From positions 31,744,001-31,808,000 of the forward strand of contig OX597825.1 in assembly GCA_951406725.2 (NCBI GenBank): DNA of 64,000 bases. The letters run 5' to 3'. The notes under the pieces were generated by a model. That model was given only the letters and a program-made list of their open reading frames with translations, was not told the origin of the DNA and did not search any database. The DNA comes from Octopus vulgaris (taxonomy: Eukaryota). The translations under genes were made by a program, and so were the position numbers. This document shows, piece by piece, positions 14,124-59,749 of the stretch; position 1 is the stretch's first letter, and each line of letters opens with the position of its first letter.

Positions 14124-14384
14124 CTTCTTTTCTTTCTATTTATTTTTTTACTAACAAATCAGAGTTAATGAATAACAACTACCAAAATAACTTATGGCCT
14201 AAGATCATCCTCATCTTCAGCATCATGATTTTCAATATCATCATCATCATCATAATCATAAGCATCATCATTATTATTATTGTTCTATGTTTGACTTTTG
14301 CTTTAACATTTGCACAAGTTGGCTCCAAGTCTCACCCAGAGACCTCAAGAGACAAGTTCGAAGTTCATGTTGGTGTTGTTGTTA

Positions 14385-14865
14385 TTATTATTCTGTCAAG
14401 ATTACATATTTCAGTAATTGACCAGTTAACGACATTGAAACTGTGAGTCACGACTGGTATGGCTAGAGCGTTGATCGCTTCGATCCTGTTTCTCGCATTC
14501 AGCTCTGTCTTAAGTATTGCTCTTACTCTGCGATAACATTCTCTCCTGATCCTTTCCTTCATCACTGAATGCCTTATTCCGTCCCCTTCAATTACCCCTA
14601 GGTACTTGTAGCTCTCCGCTGGGTCTAACTCTTTTATGAGATTCTGCTGGTCAAGGTAAATGTTAGATGTTTCTGTCATTTTTCCTTTGATAAAGGTAGC
14701 TTTTGCACATTTATCGAGACCAAATTGCATTCTGATGTCATCACTGAGTTGTTTAACAATCGTTAGTAAGCCCTTGAGTTGTTGGTAATTTTTTGCAAAG
14801 AGCTTTAAATCATCCATGTAAATGAGATGATTTATATTTTTATCCAACATTTTATATGCATCATT
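14385..14865 (-). mobile_element. R4/Dong LINE RT fragment
   Basis: INHLIYMDDLKLFA...MQFGLDKCA...YKYLG...ILKTELNARNRIEAINALAIPV; near (ATT)n. Confidence 0.92.
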
Positions 14866-14894
14866 GAGCAATTTCGAGAGAGGTATTAAGGCTA

Positions 14895-14962
<68 letters not shown>

Positions 14963-15201
14963 GAGTTGGCAGAATCACTAGTATATCAGACAATATATTT
15001 CCCAGTATTTCTTCCAGCTCTTTTTCATTCTGAGTTCAAATTCTGCCAAAGATGACTTTGCCTTTCATTCTTTCAGGGTTGATGAAACAAGGACCAGTTC
15101 AGAACTGAGGTTGATGTAATCTCTCCACTCAAAAAACTGCTAGCCTTGACCCAACAGTAGGAAGGATTACTATTACCATTATTATTATTATTATTCAGTA
15201 G

Positions 15202-21049: not shown

Positions 21050-21385
21050 AAGGCGCATGGTTCAGTGGTTGGAGCGACGAGCTTATAATCGTGAGGTTGT
21101 GAGCTCAAATCCCATACTGGGCTGTGTGTTGTGTTCTTGAGCAAGACACTTTATTTCACATTGCTCCAGTTCACTCAGCTGTAGAAATGAGTTGCGACGT
21201 CACTGGTGCCAAGCTATATCGGCTGTTGTCTTTCCCTTGGATAACACTGGTGGCATTGAGAGGGGAGGGCGGTGTGCATGAGCGACTGCTGGTCTTCCAT
21301 AAACAACCTTGCCCAGACTTGTGCCTGGGAGGGTAACTTTCTAGGTACAATTCCACGGTCTGTGTCATGACCAAAGGGGGTCTCA
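21050..21385 (+). mobile_element. tRNA-derived SINE (V-domain-like core)
   Basis: ggcgcatggttcagtgg A box, degenerate B box, ttcttgagcaagacact...cagttcactcagctgta core; related copies at 28890-29190 and 52032-52208. Confidence 0.8.
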
Positions 21386-21580
21386 GATATATATATATAT
21401 ATACGTTTAAATATTTGTTGTGCAAGATTTTTTATGTGAAGTCGTGTGTTGAAACAGATATTGTTATATTTCGGAATGGTCATTTTGCCAGTTTAGCCAA
21501 TAAAAACACACGCACTATATATTTGGTGTTACTTTGCTACAGTGTTATTTATTTTTTACATTAATCTTAATCTTATTTCA

Positions 21581-21624
21581 GCCAGAGTTCTTTCGTCACA
21601 CTCCTGTGACCGCATCAGTGGTCC
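21581..21624 (-). ncRNA. Minimal type I hammerhead-like motif in the PLE 3' region (variant core)
   Basis: CCA-CUGAUGCG-GUCAC(AGGAGU)GUGAC-GAAAGAACUC-UGG. Confidence 0.55.
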
Positions 21625-22019
21625 TTTGTTTTCTTCTCACTTATTTGTGTCTCTCCTTACTAACCGTCAGCCATTTTGTATTTCTATTGTATGTCTTCAT
21701 TTGTGCATGCTTATATCTCTATGTGCGTTTATGTTTATTTAGTGTGTGTATGTGGGGGATGCCTGTAATATTTGTATCTTCTGTTTATATATGTTCATGT
21801 AATTTGTAATTTTATATGTTCATGTAATTTGTAATTTTATATGTTCATGTAATTTGTATTTTGTATTTTGTATTTTGTTTTTTGTTTTTGTTTATTCTTA
21901 TTTTGTTCATGTGTTTACATCCACCCATTATTATCATTACATATGCTTGTATGTATGTATGTATGTATGTATGTATGTATAACAACAATACTAGTAATAA
22001 TAATAATAAATTGAATCGA

Positions 22020-22123
<104 letters not shown>

Positions 22124-22197
22124 CACATATATATATATATATATAGTTATTTATTTATTTATCTGTGTATTTATTATGTTTTCAGGATCCTCTATCG

Positions 22198-23256
22198 TCA
22201 TATGTTGTGGTGTGTGTTAGTGCTCCATTCTAGTTTTCTATTCAGGCTAGGTTTATTTTCTATTATGTGTGTAGCTTCTGTAATTTGTCTAATTGTTGCA
22301 TTTGATCTATGTGTGGATAATATTTTAATTTCTATGTTATTGATTGATCCCCCGTGTTCTTGTTCAGCGTGTTGGTACAGAATCGATGAGCTTTTACCTT
22401 CTTTGAGTTGTCTCCAATGCTCATTTACCTGCTCTCCTATGCTTCTTGCCGTTTCCCTTACGTATGTCGTTGTCTTGTTACTGCATCGTCCCTCTATACA
22501 TCTTATACTATAGACTACATTTCTGGCTTTACAGTTTGTTTGTGGGCTAAATCTACATACAGTACAGTACCTATCTGTACAGGGGGTTCTACTAAAAGGA
22601 TAGGTTCTACCAATTATAGATTTGATAGGGTTGCCTGGCTTTTCAACAACCTTAATTCTTAGCTTAAGTTTGTCTAGGGTCCTTCTAAAGCGATACGCCA
22701 GTTCACCTCCAGGGGTGGTGTCAACGAACATGACACTCTGGTATTTATGGCTATCATACCAAGAGTTGGCCTTCCCTATTTTCTTTTTTGTCCTTTCTAT
22801 AGTGTTCCATGACTTGTTCCTATAGAGTGGGCAAATACCATTCTTATCATTACATAATATATTATCAAATTTCTTAATGGTTCCTTTGTATACTCTGATC
22901 CTTTCTTTATGGCTGTAACCTGAGAACTGCATGCGGTGAATGAAATATTGTATGTGTCTCTTTAACTCTGTGGGCTCGCACATGCATGACACATTTCTCA
23001 TTATTCTGACGAGGTCTGCCATCAAAATATTGAATTTGGCATTGTCCGCAATGGCTGAGTTCCAGTGGATCAAGTATTTTGAGGCCATAGGTTTGGCATA
23101 GTATGAATGAAGGATTTGGGTTTTATTATTCACAATTTCTAGCCAGAGTTCAGTGTCTAGTACTGGTAGTCTATGGTTGGGGTGTTTAGTGGGGTAGTCT
23201 ATTGTGACCTTAATACTCTGGTGGATGGAGTTAGCTATTTGCTGGATGCTCTCCAT
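22198..23256 (-). pseudogene. PLE RT thumb + Cys-rich linker + GIY-YIG endonuclease
   Basis: LPVLDTELW, YYAKPMAS, CTDRYCTVC...C, NVVYSIRC...YVRET...EH...HAEQEH; out of frame with the RT ORF by one nucleotide. Confidence 0.92.
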
Positions 23257-23273
23257 AGTATTAGTTTCTATTA

Positions 23274-25256
23274 CTATATCAACATTACTCTCTTGTGGGG
23301 TGCCTTTACCACTATGTTGATATCATCAACATAGCGAGAGTACATGTTTACGAGTATGGAATTCTGTGTTAGGCGTTCTTTAAGCCTTCTGTCCCACCAT
23401 ACCATGAAAAGGTTGGCCACATCACCAGCAATACTAACGCCGATGGCTGCCCCCTCGTCCTGGGCATATATTTTATTATTAAACTTAAACGTGTGGCCTT
23501 TTAGGGTAATTCTTATACTAGCTCCTAGTGCATGTGCGATCATTTTCTTTATCAGATGGACATTTGCGGGGCTCCGTATGGCTCTGGTCCATCCACGCCA
23601 TCTTTCTATATGTGTCTTCCTAGCCATAGAAGTAATTGTGGGCGGTCTACCTCTTAAACATCTACTGGGGCAGAAACTACTAAGATTATGTTTATCTAAG
23701 TATTCAGTATTACATGTCAGTCTAAGTAGGGGGCCCAGTTCTTCTGTGTTGACATTACAGAACTCCACCTGGCTCTCATTGATCATCTCCACGCACTTCT
23801 CCACCGCAAAATCTACGTCGATCGATGGGTATAGGGATACCACATCCATGCTACCCACCATACATCCTGTCAGGTCACAAGTGCTGTTACAGTCATCGAT
23901 CCTGCTGAGGAGATCTTCTGTGCTGTCACAAACATCAGGTGACATCTGGATTATAGGGCGTATGATCATTGAGAGGAAGTAGGAGATTCTGTAATTGCTA
24001 GCGATATTCGCTCCACAGACTGGTCTTGTTATTGGTCCTGCTATAGGGTCAGTAATTATTTTATGGTCCTTGCGAAGTCCATACAGTGCCGGGATATCAT
24101 TGTTCCAGGCTTGGAAATTATTTCCTGTATGTTTCTGGGGTCCCAGAACAATAGTCCACATCATCATGTGGGCATTGAGGACCTTTTCTCTCTCCTCATG
24201 TGCCTGTACAGTTGTTATCTTTGTATTGGCGATATGAGGTTGTATTGCCTGGATGTAGTTCGGTAAGCTGTCTATTGACATCCTGCCAGACTTATCTGTG
24301 GGAAGGCATACCACCTCTCCGTTCCTCGTGCGCTGAATGGGCTTATGTAGGCCACATGCAGGTTTAATCCCGAGTTGTTGTGCCTCTGTCTTATTCTGTC
24401 TCTGTCTCTTAGTGTATAATCCTAAAATCTGTCTAAGTTTGGTCCTAGCTATAGTGAACTGTGCTTCCATGTGGTCATTATTATCTCTAGGGATGTAGAC
24501 TCTTTTGTTGAAGGGTAATGTTGTTGGATAAATCCGGTTCATGCAGTAAGTTTTGTCACATACGTTGAAGAATTGAGTGTCAAAGGGGTGGGTATACATG
24601 TCAATGGTCATTCTAGGGTTATCTTCATTATCGTTACTGTTTCCATCATCAGCCTGCCTATTATTATTACCACCATTACCACTACTACTATTATTACTAT
24701 TACCACCACAACTACCATCATTACTACTTCTACTATTACCACCACCACTACTACTACCACTATTATTGTTATTACCATTATTCCTACCATTGCCATTATT
24801 ACTATCATCGCTAGTGATATTTTCATTGTTCCTGTTTCTGGTGTATGTGTTGTTCATATTAGTGTTGGGTTTTATGTCTGTCTGTTGGTTCCTGTCATTC
24901 CCTCTATTGTGGTTGTTATTTTTGTTCCTACGAGTATTGTTATTATTATCTGTTTCAAGTCTACTGACTCCCTGTCCAAGGATCCTGTTGCATTCAACTA
25001 TATTTTCCATCGTGACCCCCATGACACAACTTTTATTTGTGTCTTTGTGACTATGGTTATCTGTGTGTGTGTTTGTGTGTCGGTTCTCCCTATAATTGTT
25101 GTTGTTGTTGCTGTTGTATATGATTTTTTTCTCTCTGTTTATGTTTTTGTATTTGTATCTATTGTTTGTGTCTATGCATTCATTTTTTCTTTTGTTGTTG
25201 TTGTTGCCGCTGTTAGGGTTCGTGTTGTTTTTGTTGCTACGGTTGTTATTGTTATT
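23274..25256 (-). pseudogene. PLE reverse transcriptase with Asn-rich N-terminal region
   Basis: PTDKSG, PALYGLRKDHK, RPV, GSMDVVSLYPSID, QDEGAAIG, YSRYVDD. Confidence 0.95.
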
Positions 25257-25634
25257 AAAGCCAGAAATGTAGTCTATAGTATAAGATGTATAGAGGGACG
25301 ATGCAGTAACAAGACAACGACATACGTAGGGGAAACGGCAAGAAGCATAGGAGAGCGGGTAAATGAGCATTGGAGACAACTCAAAGAAGGTAAAAGCTCA
25401 TCGATTCTGTACCAACACGCTGAACAAGAACACGGGGGATCAATCAATAACATAGAAATTAAAATATTATCCACACATAGATCAGATGCAACAATTAGAC
25501 AAATTACAGAAGCTACACACATAATAGAAAATAAACCTAGCCTGAATAGAAAACTACAATGGAGCACTAACACACACCACATATGACGATAGAGGATCCT
25601 GAAAACATAATAAATACACAGATAAATAAATAAA

Positions 25635-25673
<39 letters not shown>

Positions 25674-26264
25674 ATATGTATATGTATATATATGTATATA
25701 TATATATATATATTTTTTTTTTCGATTCAATTTATTATTATTATTACTAGTATTGTTGTTATACATACATACATACATACATACATACATACATACATAC
25801 ATACAAGCATATGTAATGATAATAATGGGTGGATGTAAACACATGAACAAAATAAGAATAAACAAAAACAAAAAACAAAATACAAAATACAAAATACAAA
25901 TTACATGAACATATAAAATTACAAATTACATGAACATATATAAACAGAAGATACAAATATTACAGGCATCCCCCACATACACACACTAAATAAACATAAA
26001 CGCACATAGCGATATAAGCATGTGCAAATGAAGACATACAATAGAAATACAAAATGGCTGATGGTTAGTAAGGAGAGACACAAATAAGTGAGAAGAAAAC
26101 AAAGGACCACTGATGCGGTCACAGGAGTGTGACGAAAGAACTCTGGCCGAAATAAGATTAAGATTAATGTAAAAAATAAATAACACTGAAGCAAAGTAAC
26201 ACCAAATATATAGTGCGTGTGTTTTTATTGGCTAAACTGGCAAAATGACCATTCCGAAATATAA

Positions 26265-26270
<6 letters not shown>
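25257..26270 (+). repeat. Inverted pseudo-LTR (copy of endonuclease end + 3' UTR)
   Basis: Near-perfect reverse complement of 21458-22530, with scattered substitutions and microsatellite length differences. Confidence 0.97.
26104..26148 (+). ncRNA. Hammerhead-like motif, second copy in the inverted pseudo-LTR
   Basis: GGACCA-CUGAUGCG-GUCAC/GUGAC-GAAAGAACUC-UGGCC. Confidence 0.55.
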
Positions 26271-37370: not shown

Positions 37371-37546
37371 AAGCTAATTTTGTAACCATTTGGCTTTGGG
37401 TTCAGTTCCAAGCCATTTTTGAGGAACTGCTGCTATTAACACATTCACCAGACAACACAGGATCACTGCCCATTTAGCAATCTAAATGGTAGAATCTATA
37501 TAAACTCGCATTTCTAAATCATATTCTTTTGATAAGGGGTTTTTAT

Positions 37547-37726
37547 ACATTATTTATATTATTTACATTATTTACATTTGACGGATATTTGTCCTCATCA
37601 TATTGGTTGTTAACACGTTTCGGCTGATATACCCTCCAGCCTTCATCAGGCATATGGTGTAGTGGTTAAGAGCGCAGGCTACGAACCCTAAGATTCTGAG
37701 TTTGATTCCAGGCAGTGACCTGAATG

Positions 37727-37782
<56 letters not shown>

Positions 37783-38016
37783 AATAATGATAACAACAAC
37801 AACAGCAACAACAACAGCAACAACAACAACAACAATAATAACATCGAAAAATACCTTAGGAATGAGAACCCAGGCTTAAAATTTCCCCAAGACACCGGAT
37901 GAAGGCTGGAGGGTATATCAGCCAAAACGTGTTAACAACAAACAAGATGAGAACAAATATCCATCAAATGTAAATAATGTAAATAATGTACATAATTCCT
38001 CATCTCTTAAATATAG
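37547..38016 (+). mobile_element. tRNA-headed SINE-like element with hammerhead-like 3' module, 5' inverted duplication and 12-bp TSD
   Basis: TSD aggggtttttat (37535-37546 / 38017-38028); 37547-37650 is the reverse complement of ~37895-37990; A/B boxes at 37655-37710. Confidence 0.85.
37611..37650 (-). ncRNA. Hammerhead-like core in the inverted arm
   Basis: CUGAUGA-A-GGCUG(10 nt)CAGCC-GAAAC-GUGUU; helix III apparently missing. Confidence 0.5.
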
Positions 38017-40040
38017 AGGGGTTTTTATGTCTGAAATATATAATGGTTACTTAGGAGGGGCATCCATCTTTCAAAAACCATACCAAACCAAACAGTGGAA
38101 CTTGGTGAAGTCTTCTGGTCTGTTAGCTCCCATCAAACCATCCAATCTATGCCAGCATAGGAAGACAGACATTAAATGATGATGATGATGATCATGATCA
38201 TGATTATGATATGCATTAGAGTGTATGTCTTTGTGTTTGCATTTGTACCCCCCATCACTACAACTTGACAACCAGTGTTGGTTTGTTTACATCCCTATAA
38301 CTTAGCAGTTCAGCAAAAAAGAGGCTGATAGAATAAGTATCAGACATTAAAATATAAGTGCTAGGGTCGATTTGTTTAACCAAACCCTTCAGGGCAGTGC
38401 TCCAACATGACTGTAATTCAAAAACTGAAACAAGTATACAATAAAAGATTGTATATGTTCAATAAAAATACTCTTAAATGCTCACCCCACCCCACTACCA
38501 CCACCACCACCACATTCCACTAATTTGACACTCCCCACTACATGCAGTCTTTGATTACAAGCCAATAAGGAAGCTTCTTATGGTCCTTTGACTTGATTGA
38601 AATAATGGCCATTTCTTCCTCAAACTACACCCTAGTATCTTAGAAAGGGTACAAATTAGAAAAGGTAGCCCAGAGCAAAAGATGAGATGGTCGTGGCTAG
38701 AATGCTTTTGATCATAAGTTTACTCAATCAGAACTAACCAGAGACTAATCAATGGTAACAACTTCTTTGATCATTCCAATCCAATGAGGAGACCAATCAT
38801 AATGGTCTCCCATCTTCACCTCACAATAGTTTGCTTCTTTTCATGTTACTCCAGTTGACTCACCTGCAAATGAGTTTCTCCAATAACTTGGGAGTTAACT
38901 TTGATATAGACCAATGTCTACTCCAAGGAGAGATGATATTGTAATCTCAGTGACAGGAACTGGGTTTCGCTCTAGTCTTATGAATCCTAGGCTCGTTACA
39001 GACCTTGGCTAAGCCTATGTTCCATCTTCATATTTCATCCTCAAAATGTTGCTTTTTCAATTCTGCTAACTATTGCCCAATTCTTCTTACTTCAATCATC
39101 TCAAAGATGAAAGAAACAAACATAAACAACCCCCTATTTTATTCCTTTGAATCTTTTTTGGCTTCTTGGTGACTATCACTATGGTGCTTGAAGTGCCAGA
39201 CCTTCTAAAGATATGTTGTCCTATGTCAGGTGCCAGCAGTGTTTTATCCTCAGGAACTTTGGTGAAAGTCATGTTGCTCCTGACACCAGTAAAGAGTTCA
39301 GTTCTGTCTAAGTTTCCATCATATGAACTTTTTCCAGTTCTAATCCTTCTGAATGGAAGCTTCTAGACCAGGCTACTCCATTGTTAATTACATTGATAGG
39401 GGTTCACCTTCAGTCAACTCTAATGTGCCTCAAAGGTCCAGTTATATCTCCAATGCCCATCCTTCTGCATGTTAGGCCTCTTGAGGCTCTTCACTTTCAT
39501 TTTAAGCAACACATGTTCTCCTGTGCTGATGAAACTTACACTTCACTCCTCAGATTTCAATACACAGGCACCATTCTTATGAAATCTTATATTCCACCAC
39601 TCCTATCCATGGATGGCATGCAACTAAAACCTCCAAAGTAACTAAAATTACTTCACTTCACAATTACAATCACCAAATATTTCCTTATTTGTTTGTGTTG
39701 TTTTTGCTGTTGCCACTGTTCTTGTCATTGATGCCGATGCCAACGCCGATGCAACCACCGTCGCCATCGTCATCATCATCATCGTCATTGTTGTTCAGCA
39801 CCAGACTTCCATGATCATACAAAACTTATATCAAATGCATTCCAGCTTTGGCCATCCTACTTTTCTTGTATCATAGCAATGATTTGAAGAAAATTTGGCA
39901 GATATTTTTAGCAAACCAACAACTGAATAAAGGCTCTCTATTTGTCTATACTGCTGGTATTGTTTAATGTACAAACATGTTCAAAGCCATTCCAGCTCTG
40001 ACCATCCCACTTTATGTATATGATGACTGTGAGAATATTT

Positions 40041-51219: not shown

Positions 51220-51438
51220 CTGTAAACATTATTATTATAATTAAAATAAAAATCCTCTCAAACAAAAACCATTTCTACTCATTGTTTCAGATATATATAT
51301 ATATATAATATAATAATAAGAGTAAATAATTTCTATAATGGTTTTTAAAAAAACCAACAATTATTTACTGGTAGAATTTGGTATGTAAGTATAGCCGATT
51401 AACGGTAGAAACTTCTGTAAAGTTCAGTATATATATTG

Positions 51439-51631
51439 TATATAAATAAATGGGGCAGGCAACAGGTTGCATGGCCGCATACCGAAAAATTAGAAATAGC
51501 AGTCAAGACTGTTTATTTCTATTATCTACAAGTGGGGCTTGTAGATAATAGAAATAAACAGTCTTGACTGCTATTTCTAATTTTTCGGTATGCGGCCAAG
51601 CAACCTGTTGCCTGCCCCATTTATTTATATA
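51439..51631. repeat. Near-perfect hairpin, ~94-bp arms, 5-nt loop
   Basis: Arms 51439-51532 / 51538-51631, one mismatch seen. Confidence 0.97.
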
Positions 51632-51655
51632 TAAAATATATATATATATATATAC

Positions 51656-51914
51656 AATATTAATTAGAGACAAAACCACTATTATGCAAATCAAACAAAG
51701 AAACACTTAATCCAATACATAAAAATTTTTATATAACTTAAATAAAATTGAATAGAAGATCTGAAAACCACCTGATGAATGTCCTTAGAAGAGACACGAA
51801 ACAATTGTAGTGGCTAATTTAATTTTATTTAATTTATATAAAAATTTTTATATATTGGATTAAGTCTTTCTTTGTTTGATTTGCATAATAGTGGTTTTGT
51901 CTCTAATTAATATT
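51656..51914. repeat. Inverted repeat (~100-bp arms) with a hammerhead ribozyme in the 58-nt spacer
   Basis: Arms 51656-51755 / 51814-51914. Confidence 0.95.
51768..51813 (+). ncRNA. Minimal type I hammerhead ribozyme with palindromic helix III
   Basis: CCAC-CUGAUGA-aUGUC(9 nt)GACAc-GAAAC-AAUU-GUA-GUGG. Confidence 0.85.
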
Positions 51915-51993
51915 ATATAATATTTTACTATAAAATTGGATTCAATCCTAAATCTAATTTTTCCCTGTAAATTTGGATATATTCCCTAATATT

Positions 51994-52031
<38 letters not shown>

Positions 52032-52989
52032 GCACCAGTGTTATCCAAGGGAAAGACAAAGGTCGATACAGGGCACGTGACGTGAACTCATTTCACAGCT
52101 GAGTAGCTGGAGCACGTGAAAAGTCTTTGCTCAAGAACAACACGCAGCGGTCGATCGAACTCACAACCTCGTCGTAGCTCGACGCTCTAACCACTGAGCC
52201 ATGCGCCTATATATATATATATATATATATACATACAGGTACTGAACCTCTTATCCGGCAACCTTGGGACCAGAGGTGGTTTGGATTTCTGGATTTTCTT
52301 GATTTCTGGACACAGGCCTTTTAGACATGGTAATACATAAAAATTATAATAAATTAAGACAAATAACTACTTAATTGTAAGAGGAGGGCTTCTACACAGC
52401 AGCAGTCACACAGGAACTGGCATCATGTGATGCATACACCATGGAAACCAAAACAAAGCAGCTGCACAGTGAACTGTGAAATTCAAAACTAACCAGATTT
52501 CTGGTCATTCTGGATTACCAAAGGTCTCAGTCACTAGTCATTACCTCTGTGAGGTTCAAAGTTTGAAGATAATGCTTCACCACCTTGTCCCATGTCTTCC
52601 TACCACAGGTTCCCCCCACAGTTAGAGATCAACACTTCTTTACACAACTGTCCTCATCCATACGCATCACATGAACATACAAGTGCAGTCGTCTCTCTTG
52701 CATACACATATATTAATATTTTGCTTAAACATTGTCATGCTAATAACCTGGTGTTAGAACTCAATAAACTTATGCTTCAAGAAAGCATTAATAGAGTACA
52801 GAGCATAATAAGAGACAATATGATTGACAAAGGAACAAAAAAATTATGTAATATTCTTCTATAGCTTACTGATGTTTCTGCTATGAGATGCAATATACTC
52901 ATAGTTGAGTGCTTGTGTATCACCTTAAAGCTCTGTCAGAGCTTCAGAAACATGTAGGTATGCAATTTATGTATATATAATCATCATTT

Positions 52990-53319
52990 TTCGTTTTGGG
53001 ATTTGGTTTGCAAGATTCTTTATATGAGTTTGTGTGTTGAAGCATATTCTGTTGTGTCTGGGGAGAGTCATTCTCTTTTAGTGCCTTATTATTTAACACA
53101 CTCACAGGTAAAATTTCCACTTATTTCTTATTTTTTTTTTTCTAAAATTTTCGTTGCATCTTGCAACCTTTTCGACTATTGAAAAGGTTGCAAAATGCAA
53201 CGAAAATTTTAGAAAATAAAAAATAAGAAATAAGTGGAAATTTTACCAATGAAAATTTTAGAAAATGTGTTAAATAATAAGGCACTAAAAGAGAATGATT
53301 CTCCCCAGACACAACAGAA
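52990..53319 (-). mobile_element. Miniature PLE-derived fold-back insertion with 12-bp TSD
   Basis: TSD taatcatcattt (52978-52989 / 53320-53331); arms 53046-53173 / 53181-53320; unduplicated tail homologous to the big PLE tail at 21404-21465. Confidence 0.85.
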
Positions 53320-53339
53320 TAATCATCATTTCATATCCA

Positions 53340-59507: not shown

Positions 59508-59516
<9 letters not shown>

Positions 59517-59644
59517 GGATTAATCAACAAGCTGCTTAACTACATACCGAAAATTTAAAATAGCAGCCAAAGACAGCTTATTGGCTGCTATTTCTAAATT
59601 TTCGGTATGTGATTAAGCAACTTGTTGATTAACCCTTAATTATA
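59508..59644. repeat. Imperfect hairpin (~63-bp arms, 10-nt loop) homologous to 51439-51631
   Basis: cataccgaaaatttaaaatagcagccaa vs cataccgaaaaattagaaatagcagtcaa. Confidence 0.85.
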
Positions 59645-59749
59645 TTTATATATAAAAAGACTTTTTGTAAAAGTTCCTACTGATAATGGTTCTCTTTACA
59701 TAAAGTACTTGGTAAAAATTTATTAATATTAAATTTATAATTATTTACC

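Follow-up and report, generated by a model that had tools for sequence, protein, structure and literature searches.

The hairpins A, B and C, which lie within 2 kb of each other in the Octopus vulgaris genome, are ordinary head-to-head stubs and common debris of Penelope-type elements (PLEs). They were studied in a stretch of 64,000 nucleotides (contig OX597825.1, positions 31,744,001 to 31,808,000), which is referred to as the window and whose own numbering is used below. Each window hairpin is a single insertion belonging to a dispersed family. Probably, a hairpin of this kind consists of two 5'-truncated copies placed head to head in one insertion, formed by priming on two strands, with copying stopped at random, at palindromes or at the likely transcription start, and not at the predicted ribozyme cut.

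The architecture found in the window is already published for PLEs. EN+ PLE units in which an inverted 5'-truncated copy abuts the 5' end and a tail is present have been described (Craig et al. 2021, PMC8557442), as have inverted pLTRs whose junctions are palindromic and whose targets are duplicated (Arkhipova et al. 2013, PMC3846280), and minimal hammerheads occur as pairs on opposite strands 100-700 bp apart, with a U3-A8 core variant (Cervera and de la Pena 2014, PMC4209133). The units described in PMC8557442 and PMC3846280 share with those studied here a tail at one end, a target-site duplication (TSD), a palindromic junction and (TA)n targets, but their tails are described as 30-40 nt, whereas the tails of A, B and C are 60-120 nt.

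Layout of the window hairpins and their families

Self-comparison of the window recovers the inverted repeats of A (51428-51642, 95.5%), B (51656-51753/51817-51914, 95.9%), C (53045-53173/53181-53321, 87%) and D (37580-37650/37895-37965, 90%), as well as the long one at the 4.9-kb element, and a hairpin is also present at 59.5 kb. Each of them has an unduplicated tail on one side only. The first-pass annotation had described three unrelated hairpin elements within 2 kb, and A, B and C are indeed mutually unrelated, separate dispersed families. It had also seen in all hairpins the plan of a 4.9-kb PLE (family E), with arms that are PLE ends; this holds as well, B, C and D being linked to RT/GIY-YIG ORFs. 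The 59.5-kb hairpin turned out to be a diverged relative of A with no family of its own. Exact anchor matches, counted genome-wide in the 2.8-Gb assembly, number 75 for A, 1785 for B, 1006 for C, 2873 for D and 2150 for E, with 0 control matches for each. All five families have a hammerhead motif, with variant cores in B, C and E, and self-cleavage of these motifs is predicted. A strict hammerhead scan recovered the motifs of E and C but not those of B and D, and gave nothing in 20 shuffles; an Rfam scan of the window gave no hammerhead in the best 150 of 255 rows, the matches being microsatellite or hairpin artefacts.

Hairpin A begins with its unduplicated tail of about 120 nt (51310..51432, minus strand). 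The tail-bearing copy (51433..51539, minus strand) is 5'-truncated, has no hammerhead, and has its 5' end at a distance of about 74 nt on the 3' side of the cut predicted for the family. For the 5' end of the tailless copy (51538..51632, plus strand), the corresponding distance is about 81 nt. The two arms overlap by 2 nt at the turn, and the family's motif is located about 75-80 nt upstream of both truncation points. In tandem copies, the A tail continues into the next 557-bp unit. Locus L146 has two A anchors 557 bp apart with a hammerhead in each unit, and the tail-to-head continuation recurs in several further loci. A PLE ORF was sought in the A loci, and none was found. A behaves as a PLE end, but a non-autonomous one, and its sequence suggests a retrozyme-like repeat, a head-to-tail 557-bp noncoding unit with a minimal type I hammerhead. 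Non-LTR retrozymes, as described in PMC7229834 and bioRxiv 10.64898/2026.07.22.740005, likewise consist of head-to-tail units, each of which contains a type I hammerhead, and have no ORF linked to them. Their units are 150-450 bp, shorter than the 557 bp of A, and carry the hammerhead, whereas the A copy in the window is without the motif.

Across the family, stem II of the A hammerhead is highly variable in length via expansion of AT-rich repeats (L143, L150 and L240), the core-to-cut distance ranging from 44 to 115 nt. One A insertion occurs in five near-identical copies on contig C29 (L260-L264) with an identical junction, and these are likely segmental duplicates. The A-like hairpin at 59.5 kb (59510..59745, plus strand) has its tail at the right and is 72-80% identical to A; a hammerhead was sought in its sequence, and none was seen. 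A (TA)n tract common to A and B occupies 51633..51654, through which the two hairpins likely adjoin. Among the matches listed, (TA)6+ is found within 170 nt 3' of 100 of the 106 B copies and 66 of the 92 A copies.

The tailless inverted copy of B (51655..51753, minus strand) has a 5' end that falls in an AT-rich quasi-palindrome, at a distance of 7-13 nt on the 3' side of the predicted cut. It is followed on the plus strand by an exon 1 remnant (51743..51758), which starts about 11 nt past the putative transcription start and is fused directly to exon 2. Exon 2 extends to the inner, tailless 3' end (51759..51918), and the unduplicated tail (51919..51998) then runs into (TA)n. The minimal type I hammerhead of B (51766..51815, plus strand), read by hand, has its core at 51772-51778, a predicted cut after 51809, a palindromic stem III, and A-C in place of G-C at 10.1-11.1. 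Beyond the B tail, a SINE-like repeat is located across the (TA)n tract (52033-52208), and a 77% inverted relative of it adjoins the 4.9-kb PLE (21051-21252). The window also has a fragment of a non-LTR retrotransposon reverse transcriptase ORF (14365-14985, minus strand).

Linkage of B to an ORF is seen in L344 and L347, which join the ORF 3' UTR to the hammerhead exon, and in L342/L345, which contain RT motifs. The ORF has a C-terminal GIY-YIG-type EN, a CxCX5C linker, and CxxC and CxH near a conserved E and N. PLE domains were read from motifs, because Pfam gave only a sub-threshold RVT_1 match for E and none for B. Judged by the linker and EN motifs together with the (TA)n targets, and without a tree, B appears to be a Hydra-clade-like PLE. 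It shares the CxCX5C linker, CxxC, CxH, the hammerhead and (TA)n targeting with the C-terminal EN+ PLEs of that clade as described in PMC8557442; beside them, B has two nested introns whose common acceptor is located 13 nt upstream of the core of the hammerhead. Between thumb and linker, the ORF in L342/L345 also contains a long insert rich in asparagine, resembling the N-rich inserts of rotifer PLEs (PMC3846280).

Hairpin C is flanked by the two copies of a 13-bp TSD (52977..52989 and 53319..53331, plus strand). Its unduplicated tail (52990..53050, minus strand) resembles that of the 4.9-kb PLE. The tail-bearing copy (53051..53173, minus strand) has its 5' end 13 nt past the family's 5'-end hotspot, and the tailless copy (53174..53318, plus strand) starts 6 nt past it. 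The latter contains a hammerhead-like U3-A8 motif on the plus strand, whose stem I has 3 bp, whose core occupies 53179-53185 and which is predicted to be cut after 53209. A type III or permuted hammerhead at the hotspot was rejected by eye, as no UH triplet is there and no second core is intact. The extreme 5' end of C copies has a 3-4 bp hairpin that is seemingly kept despite base changes (e.g. L107, L123, L267 and L272), which could be a promoter or processing signal. At G000:C2:10306441-10308986, an inverted pair is followed by a tandem array of C anchors with about 218-bp spacing.

C is a sister family of E, an ORF upstream of C having 48-76% identity to the E protein. The E element itself (21400..26270, minus strand) has an RT plus a GIY-YIG at the C terminus in two frames, a 1-kb inverted 3' copy and a tail, with hammerhead-like motifs at 21618-21585 (minus strand) and 26110-26143 (plus strand). 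As variants, the motifs of E and C parallel each other: the former has C3-G8 where the latter has U3-A8, stem II is preceded by one additional base in each, and position 9 of the E motif is C. A CX4CxxC linker precedes the C-terminal GIY-YIG of E in the window ORF 22198-23322. By this linker, E, and C via its homology to E, would match Neptune/Nematis, and either clade fits.

D is a Penelope/Poseidon-type end repeat with a tRNA-like head (37535..38028) and a 12-bp TSD; the end of an endonuclease-type ORF lies upstream. In the window, the direct copy of D begins at the tRNA-like head (37650) and the inverted copy stops in the hammerhead core. Three D insertions (the one at 37650, L315 and L319) share a turn at the first hammerhead-core base with a partner arm starting from the tRNA head, a recurrence that a short overlap may explain.

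5'-end peaks and intron loss

We then inspected the 5' ends of copies sampled from each family. For B, all 100 matches listed, out of 1785, gave 63 loci and 105 copies after two duplicate loci were dropped, and for A, all 75 matches gave 60 loci and 84 copies after four duplicates were dropped. C, D and E, among the matches listed, gave 44, 49 and 44 loci with 61, 75 and 55 copies, respectively, three spurious D rows having been dropped. The B-E samples are the matches listed first, on one contig, and the window's own copies are excluded from the copy counts. The 5' ends were placed by alignment to a few sense-only reference copies, and 16 positions were corrected by hand (8 B, 1 C and 7 D).

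Three families have a 5'-end peak among the matches listed. For C, 30 copies extend far enough, and 14 of them terminate no more than 3 nt from a single base located 11 nt upstream of the core (1.7 expected); for D, 15 of 24 end within -8..+7 of the start of the tRNA-like head (2.1 expected); and for B, 12 of 23 spliced copies have their end 0-3 nt from a single base that lies upstream of the core by about 40 nt. The upstream peak of E is weak in the matches listed (4 vs 1.2 expected), and the A copies have no such peak. In the window, both C arms, the D direct arm and the B direct arm start at or within 13 nt of these peaks. The B, C and D peaks are likely transcription starts as read from genomic copies, that of C being read from its peak of ends. 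Five of 11 spliced copies carry a G before the B start base, where T stands in both genomic contexts (matches listed). This extra G is suggestive of cap copying, though two of the five cases can stem from overlap with the partner arm.

Long B copies (L061 and L321) have an exon of 27-28 nt, a GT, an intron of 1.1-1.3 kb, and an AG 13 nt before the hammerhead core. In short B copies, that of the window included, exon 1 and exon 2 are joined exactly, and in most B copies that reach this far the GT-AG intron is precisely absent. Exact exon1-GT and AG-exon2 partners are available in two subfamilies, L061/L095 and L321/window; the window copy is thus without the 1.1-kb intron carried by L321. The positional sample has 24 copies classed as spliced and 9 as unspliced among the matches listed, one spliced copy, 2-3 nt into exon 1, having been corrected. 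By exact genome-wide counts, the window's subfamily has 110 joined forms versus 30 intron-bearing acceptors, and a second subfamily has 67 joined forms versus 7 donors, a ratio inflated because donors need 1.3 kb more copying. Intron-bearing and intron-less forms coexist in five B subfamilies (matches listed), which favours repeated splicing over a single old deletion. One intron-bearing case, L061:489-5300, is a B insertion of 4.7 kb whose inverted arms match perfectly over 1.85 kb and both carry the intron, and which has no ORF; L062 is its near-identical duplicate, flanks included, 373 kb away (99.8%).

A second B donor, about 200 nt past the stop codon in the 3' UTR, splices to the same pre-hammerhead acceptor. 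In 25 ORF-linked B loci, this 3' UTR intron is absent from 4, retained in 9 and not reached in 12. Comparison of L344, L347, L351 and L365 with L345 and L346 reveals that splicing from this donor removes the putative promoter and exon 1. Copies spliced in this way would hence lack the downstream promoter. Contigs of RNA runs have a single low-depth joint near the B intron, which is too weak to serve as evidence. The genomic copies suggest that B elements can copy spliced messenger RNA.

PLEs are described as retaining introns in their genomic copies, and an antisense template has been floated (PMC8557442, PMC3846280). B departs from this rule, the majority of its copies being intron-less at the 5' intron. 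The pLTR of D. virilis Penelope is described as having an internal promoter and a short first exon of 46 nt, compared with 27-28 nt in B, and a 5' intron that ends at the start of hammerhead stem I, as in B (Schostak et al. 2008, PMC2377424; PMC4209133). The Penelope intron is 75 bp and is described as kept in transposition (PMC2377424), whereas that of B is 1.1-1.3 kb and is missing from most short copies. Among the papers listed by literature searches, Arkhipova 2003 and 2006 being outside this scope, no title or abstract opening reports intron-less genomic PLE copies or positions of turns relative to hammerheads.

Insertion ends relative to the hammerhead

The first-pass annotation had proposed that the ribozyme, by cleavage or by its structure, determines where reverse transcription ends and folds back. 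Pooled over the 380 copies of the five families among the matches listed, 14 ends lie at the predicted cut (-3..+4, spanning 3 nt on its 3' side to 4 nt on its 5' side) versus 11.3 expected (P=0.25). Observed and expected numbers in the same sample are 6/3.3 for B, 0/1.5 for A, 4/2.4 for C, 4/2.9 for D and 0/1.2 for E; none of the 84 A copies and none of the 55 E copies (E among the matches listed) ends at the cut. Plotted against the predicted cuts, the inversion points of this sample do not gather there, and the null pooled result does not support, as a rule, the part of the proposal that invokes cleavage. Ends within the motif body are at or below expectation, with depletion in D, where 17.7 are expected and 7 seen, and in E, where 7.2 are expected and none seen, among the matches listed.

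Arm ends do fall in or beside a hammerhead or hammerhead-like motif at 37.6, 51.8 and 53.2 kb, as had been annotated. This three-of-five share is unremarkable, because geometry predicts a similar one: among the matches listed, at least one end falls inside the motif or no more than 10 nt away from it in 52 of 113 pairs, versus about 61 under uniform ends (A 3/21, B 31/42, C 8/16, D 10/25, E 0/9). Nor does every element carry an intact motif; A (51.3-51.6 kb) is without a hammerhead, the 53.2-kb motif is a variant, and, compared with other D copies, 3 nt are missing at the cut from both motifs at 37.6 kb. In the 4.9-kb element, distances of about 0.9 kb and 3.7 kb separate the turn (about 25256) from the two motifs.

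A structural role of the ribozyme finds some support in B, where 34 ends lie 4-20 nt 3' of the cut versus 7.3 expected (matches listed). The excess is weak in A (8 vs 3.3, P=0.02) and absent from C, D and E (matches listed). This zone and the 20 nt beyond it, which are AT-rich, hold the longest self-complementary stretches of four B references. Because the post-cut zone is AT-rich and self-complementary, the placement of B junctions is ambiguous; because it is AT-rich and resembles the (TA)n target, B alignments overshoot to the first G/C. The excess may reflect a palindrome effect, a ribozyme stall at stem I, or a cut followed by trimming.

If the ribozyme set the turn, cleavage would form the RNA 5' end or the folded motif would stall the RT, and the cDNA would be trimmed and rejoined at the nearest palindrome. 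Such a process could account for the B excess, which is near the 3' base of stem I, for the B pairs ending in or beside the motif, and for the slight excess at the cut that B, C and D show without reaching significance. It is at odds with the pooled result, the absence of cut-site ends from A and E and the depleted motif bodies of D and E, and the longest self-complementary stretches of B coincide with the excess zone and the 20 nt beyond. Moreover, at the upstream peak of B half of the copies keep the last 0-3 nt, few keep the first post-cut bases, and at least 23 of the 105 B copies run through the uncut motif into exon 1 (all among the matches listed). We therefore consider it unlikely that the ribozyme sets the turn.

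Formation of the inverted pairs

The 260 loci contain 110 inverted pairs, and 104 of these have the tail on exactly one arm (matches listed). In 42 pairs the arm with the tail is the shorter of the two, in 32 it is the longer, and in 33 the arms are tied; among E pairs it is shorter in 7 of 7 decided cases (all among the matches listed). The position of the tailless 3' end is fixed and is shared with solo copies; copies have two fixed 3' ends, with and without the tail. Many junctions have a 1-12 nt overlap or small fill-ins, and several B turns sit on local palindromes (matches listed). In 7 B pairs with both arms past the exon junction, the two arms have the same splice state (matches listed). 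Insertions of C and D have TSDs of 13 and 12 bp, respectively, and most A, B and E copies have (TA)n target sites. Direct repeats flank many sampled pairs, although some of these are chance or element-internal.

The formation of inverted units and the polarity of their template are stated as open in PMC3846280 and PMC8557442. For rotifer PLEs, a single cDNA has been proposed to fold back at a palindrome and prime itself, which agrees with the junction overlaps, with the B turns on palindromes and with the matching splice states. A tail-primed single cDNA would make the tailed arm always longer, yet it is shorter in 42 of the 74 decided pairs and in all decided E pairs (matches listed), so self-priming is not the rule. 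The fixed tailless 3' end of solo copies also speaks against it, as does the antisense template that it needs according to PMC3846280, which gives no account of precise intron loss. The cDNA fold-back of the first-pass annotation is thus doubtful as a general mechanism, and we consider self-priming quite improbable here; two-strand priming fits the tail-length counts better. Most improbable is that the hairpins are MITE-like units moving as preformed fold-backs, or are retained as dsRNA sources for ADAR or RNAi. Each hairpin transcript is predicted to fold into a long stable hairpin with -85 to -191 kcal/mol, but junctions vary by locus, a few near-identical duplicated loci excepted (matches listed), and solo copies are many. 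Membership in the MITE or fold-back DNA transposons was likewise rejected, as arm lengths and junctions vary from one locus to the next and solo copies are many.

In the two-strand reading, the element's enzyme would prime one cDNA on each of the two nicked target strands and join the cDNA ends by short overlaps or fill-ins. Copying would break off at random or at local palindromes, or else run out at the likely transcription start. Priming would occur at two internal sites 150-300 nt from the RNA 5' end. Because these putative sites are so close to the 5' end, short run-off cDNAs would be common and the hammerhead would merely lie in their path. The B template would often be the spliced and probably capped sense RNA, and A would be mobilised in trans by a PLE enzyme. 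In vitro, Poseidon_Ac is described as cutting and extending both target strands, with two internal start sites that define the tail (Frangieh et al. 2024, PMC11167929); it shares both features with our reading of the window. Its ribozyme mutants still insert, and the same source describes no RNA-seq ends at the cut. That Penelope-type elements mass-produce run-off ('strong-stop'-like) cDNAs, from a spliced, capped sense RNA primed twice close to its 5' end, the products running to the transcription start and being joined head to head, we regard as an evenly balanced proposition.

Taken together, the data speak against a general role of hammerhead cleavage in setting insertion ends, and their value is mechanistic. 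The intron-less B copies beside intron-bearing ones in the same subfamilies point to a spliced sense template, and the counts of tail versus arm length argue for priming on both strands. If the run-off reading is true, intron retention would not be forced by the mechanism and an antisense template would be unneeded, and the genomic stubs would map PLE promoters and splice sites without RNA data.
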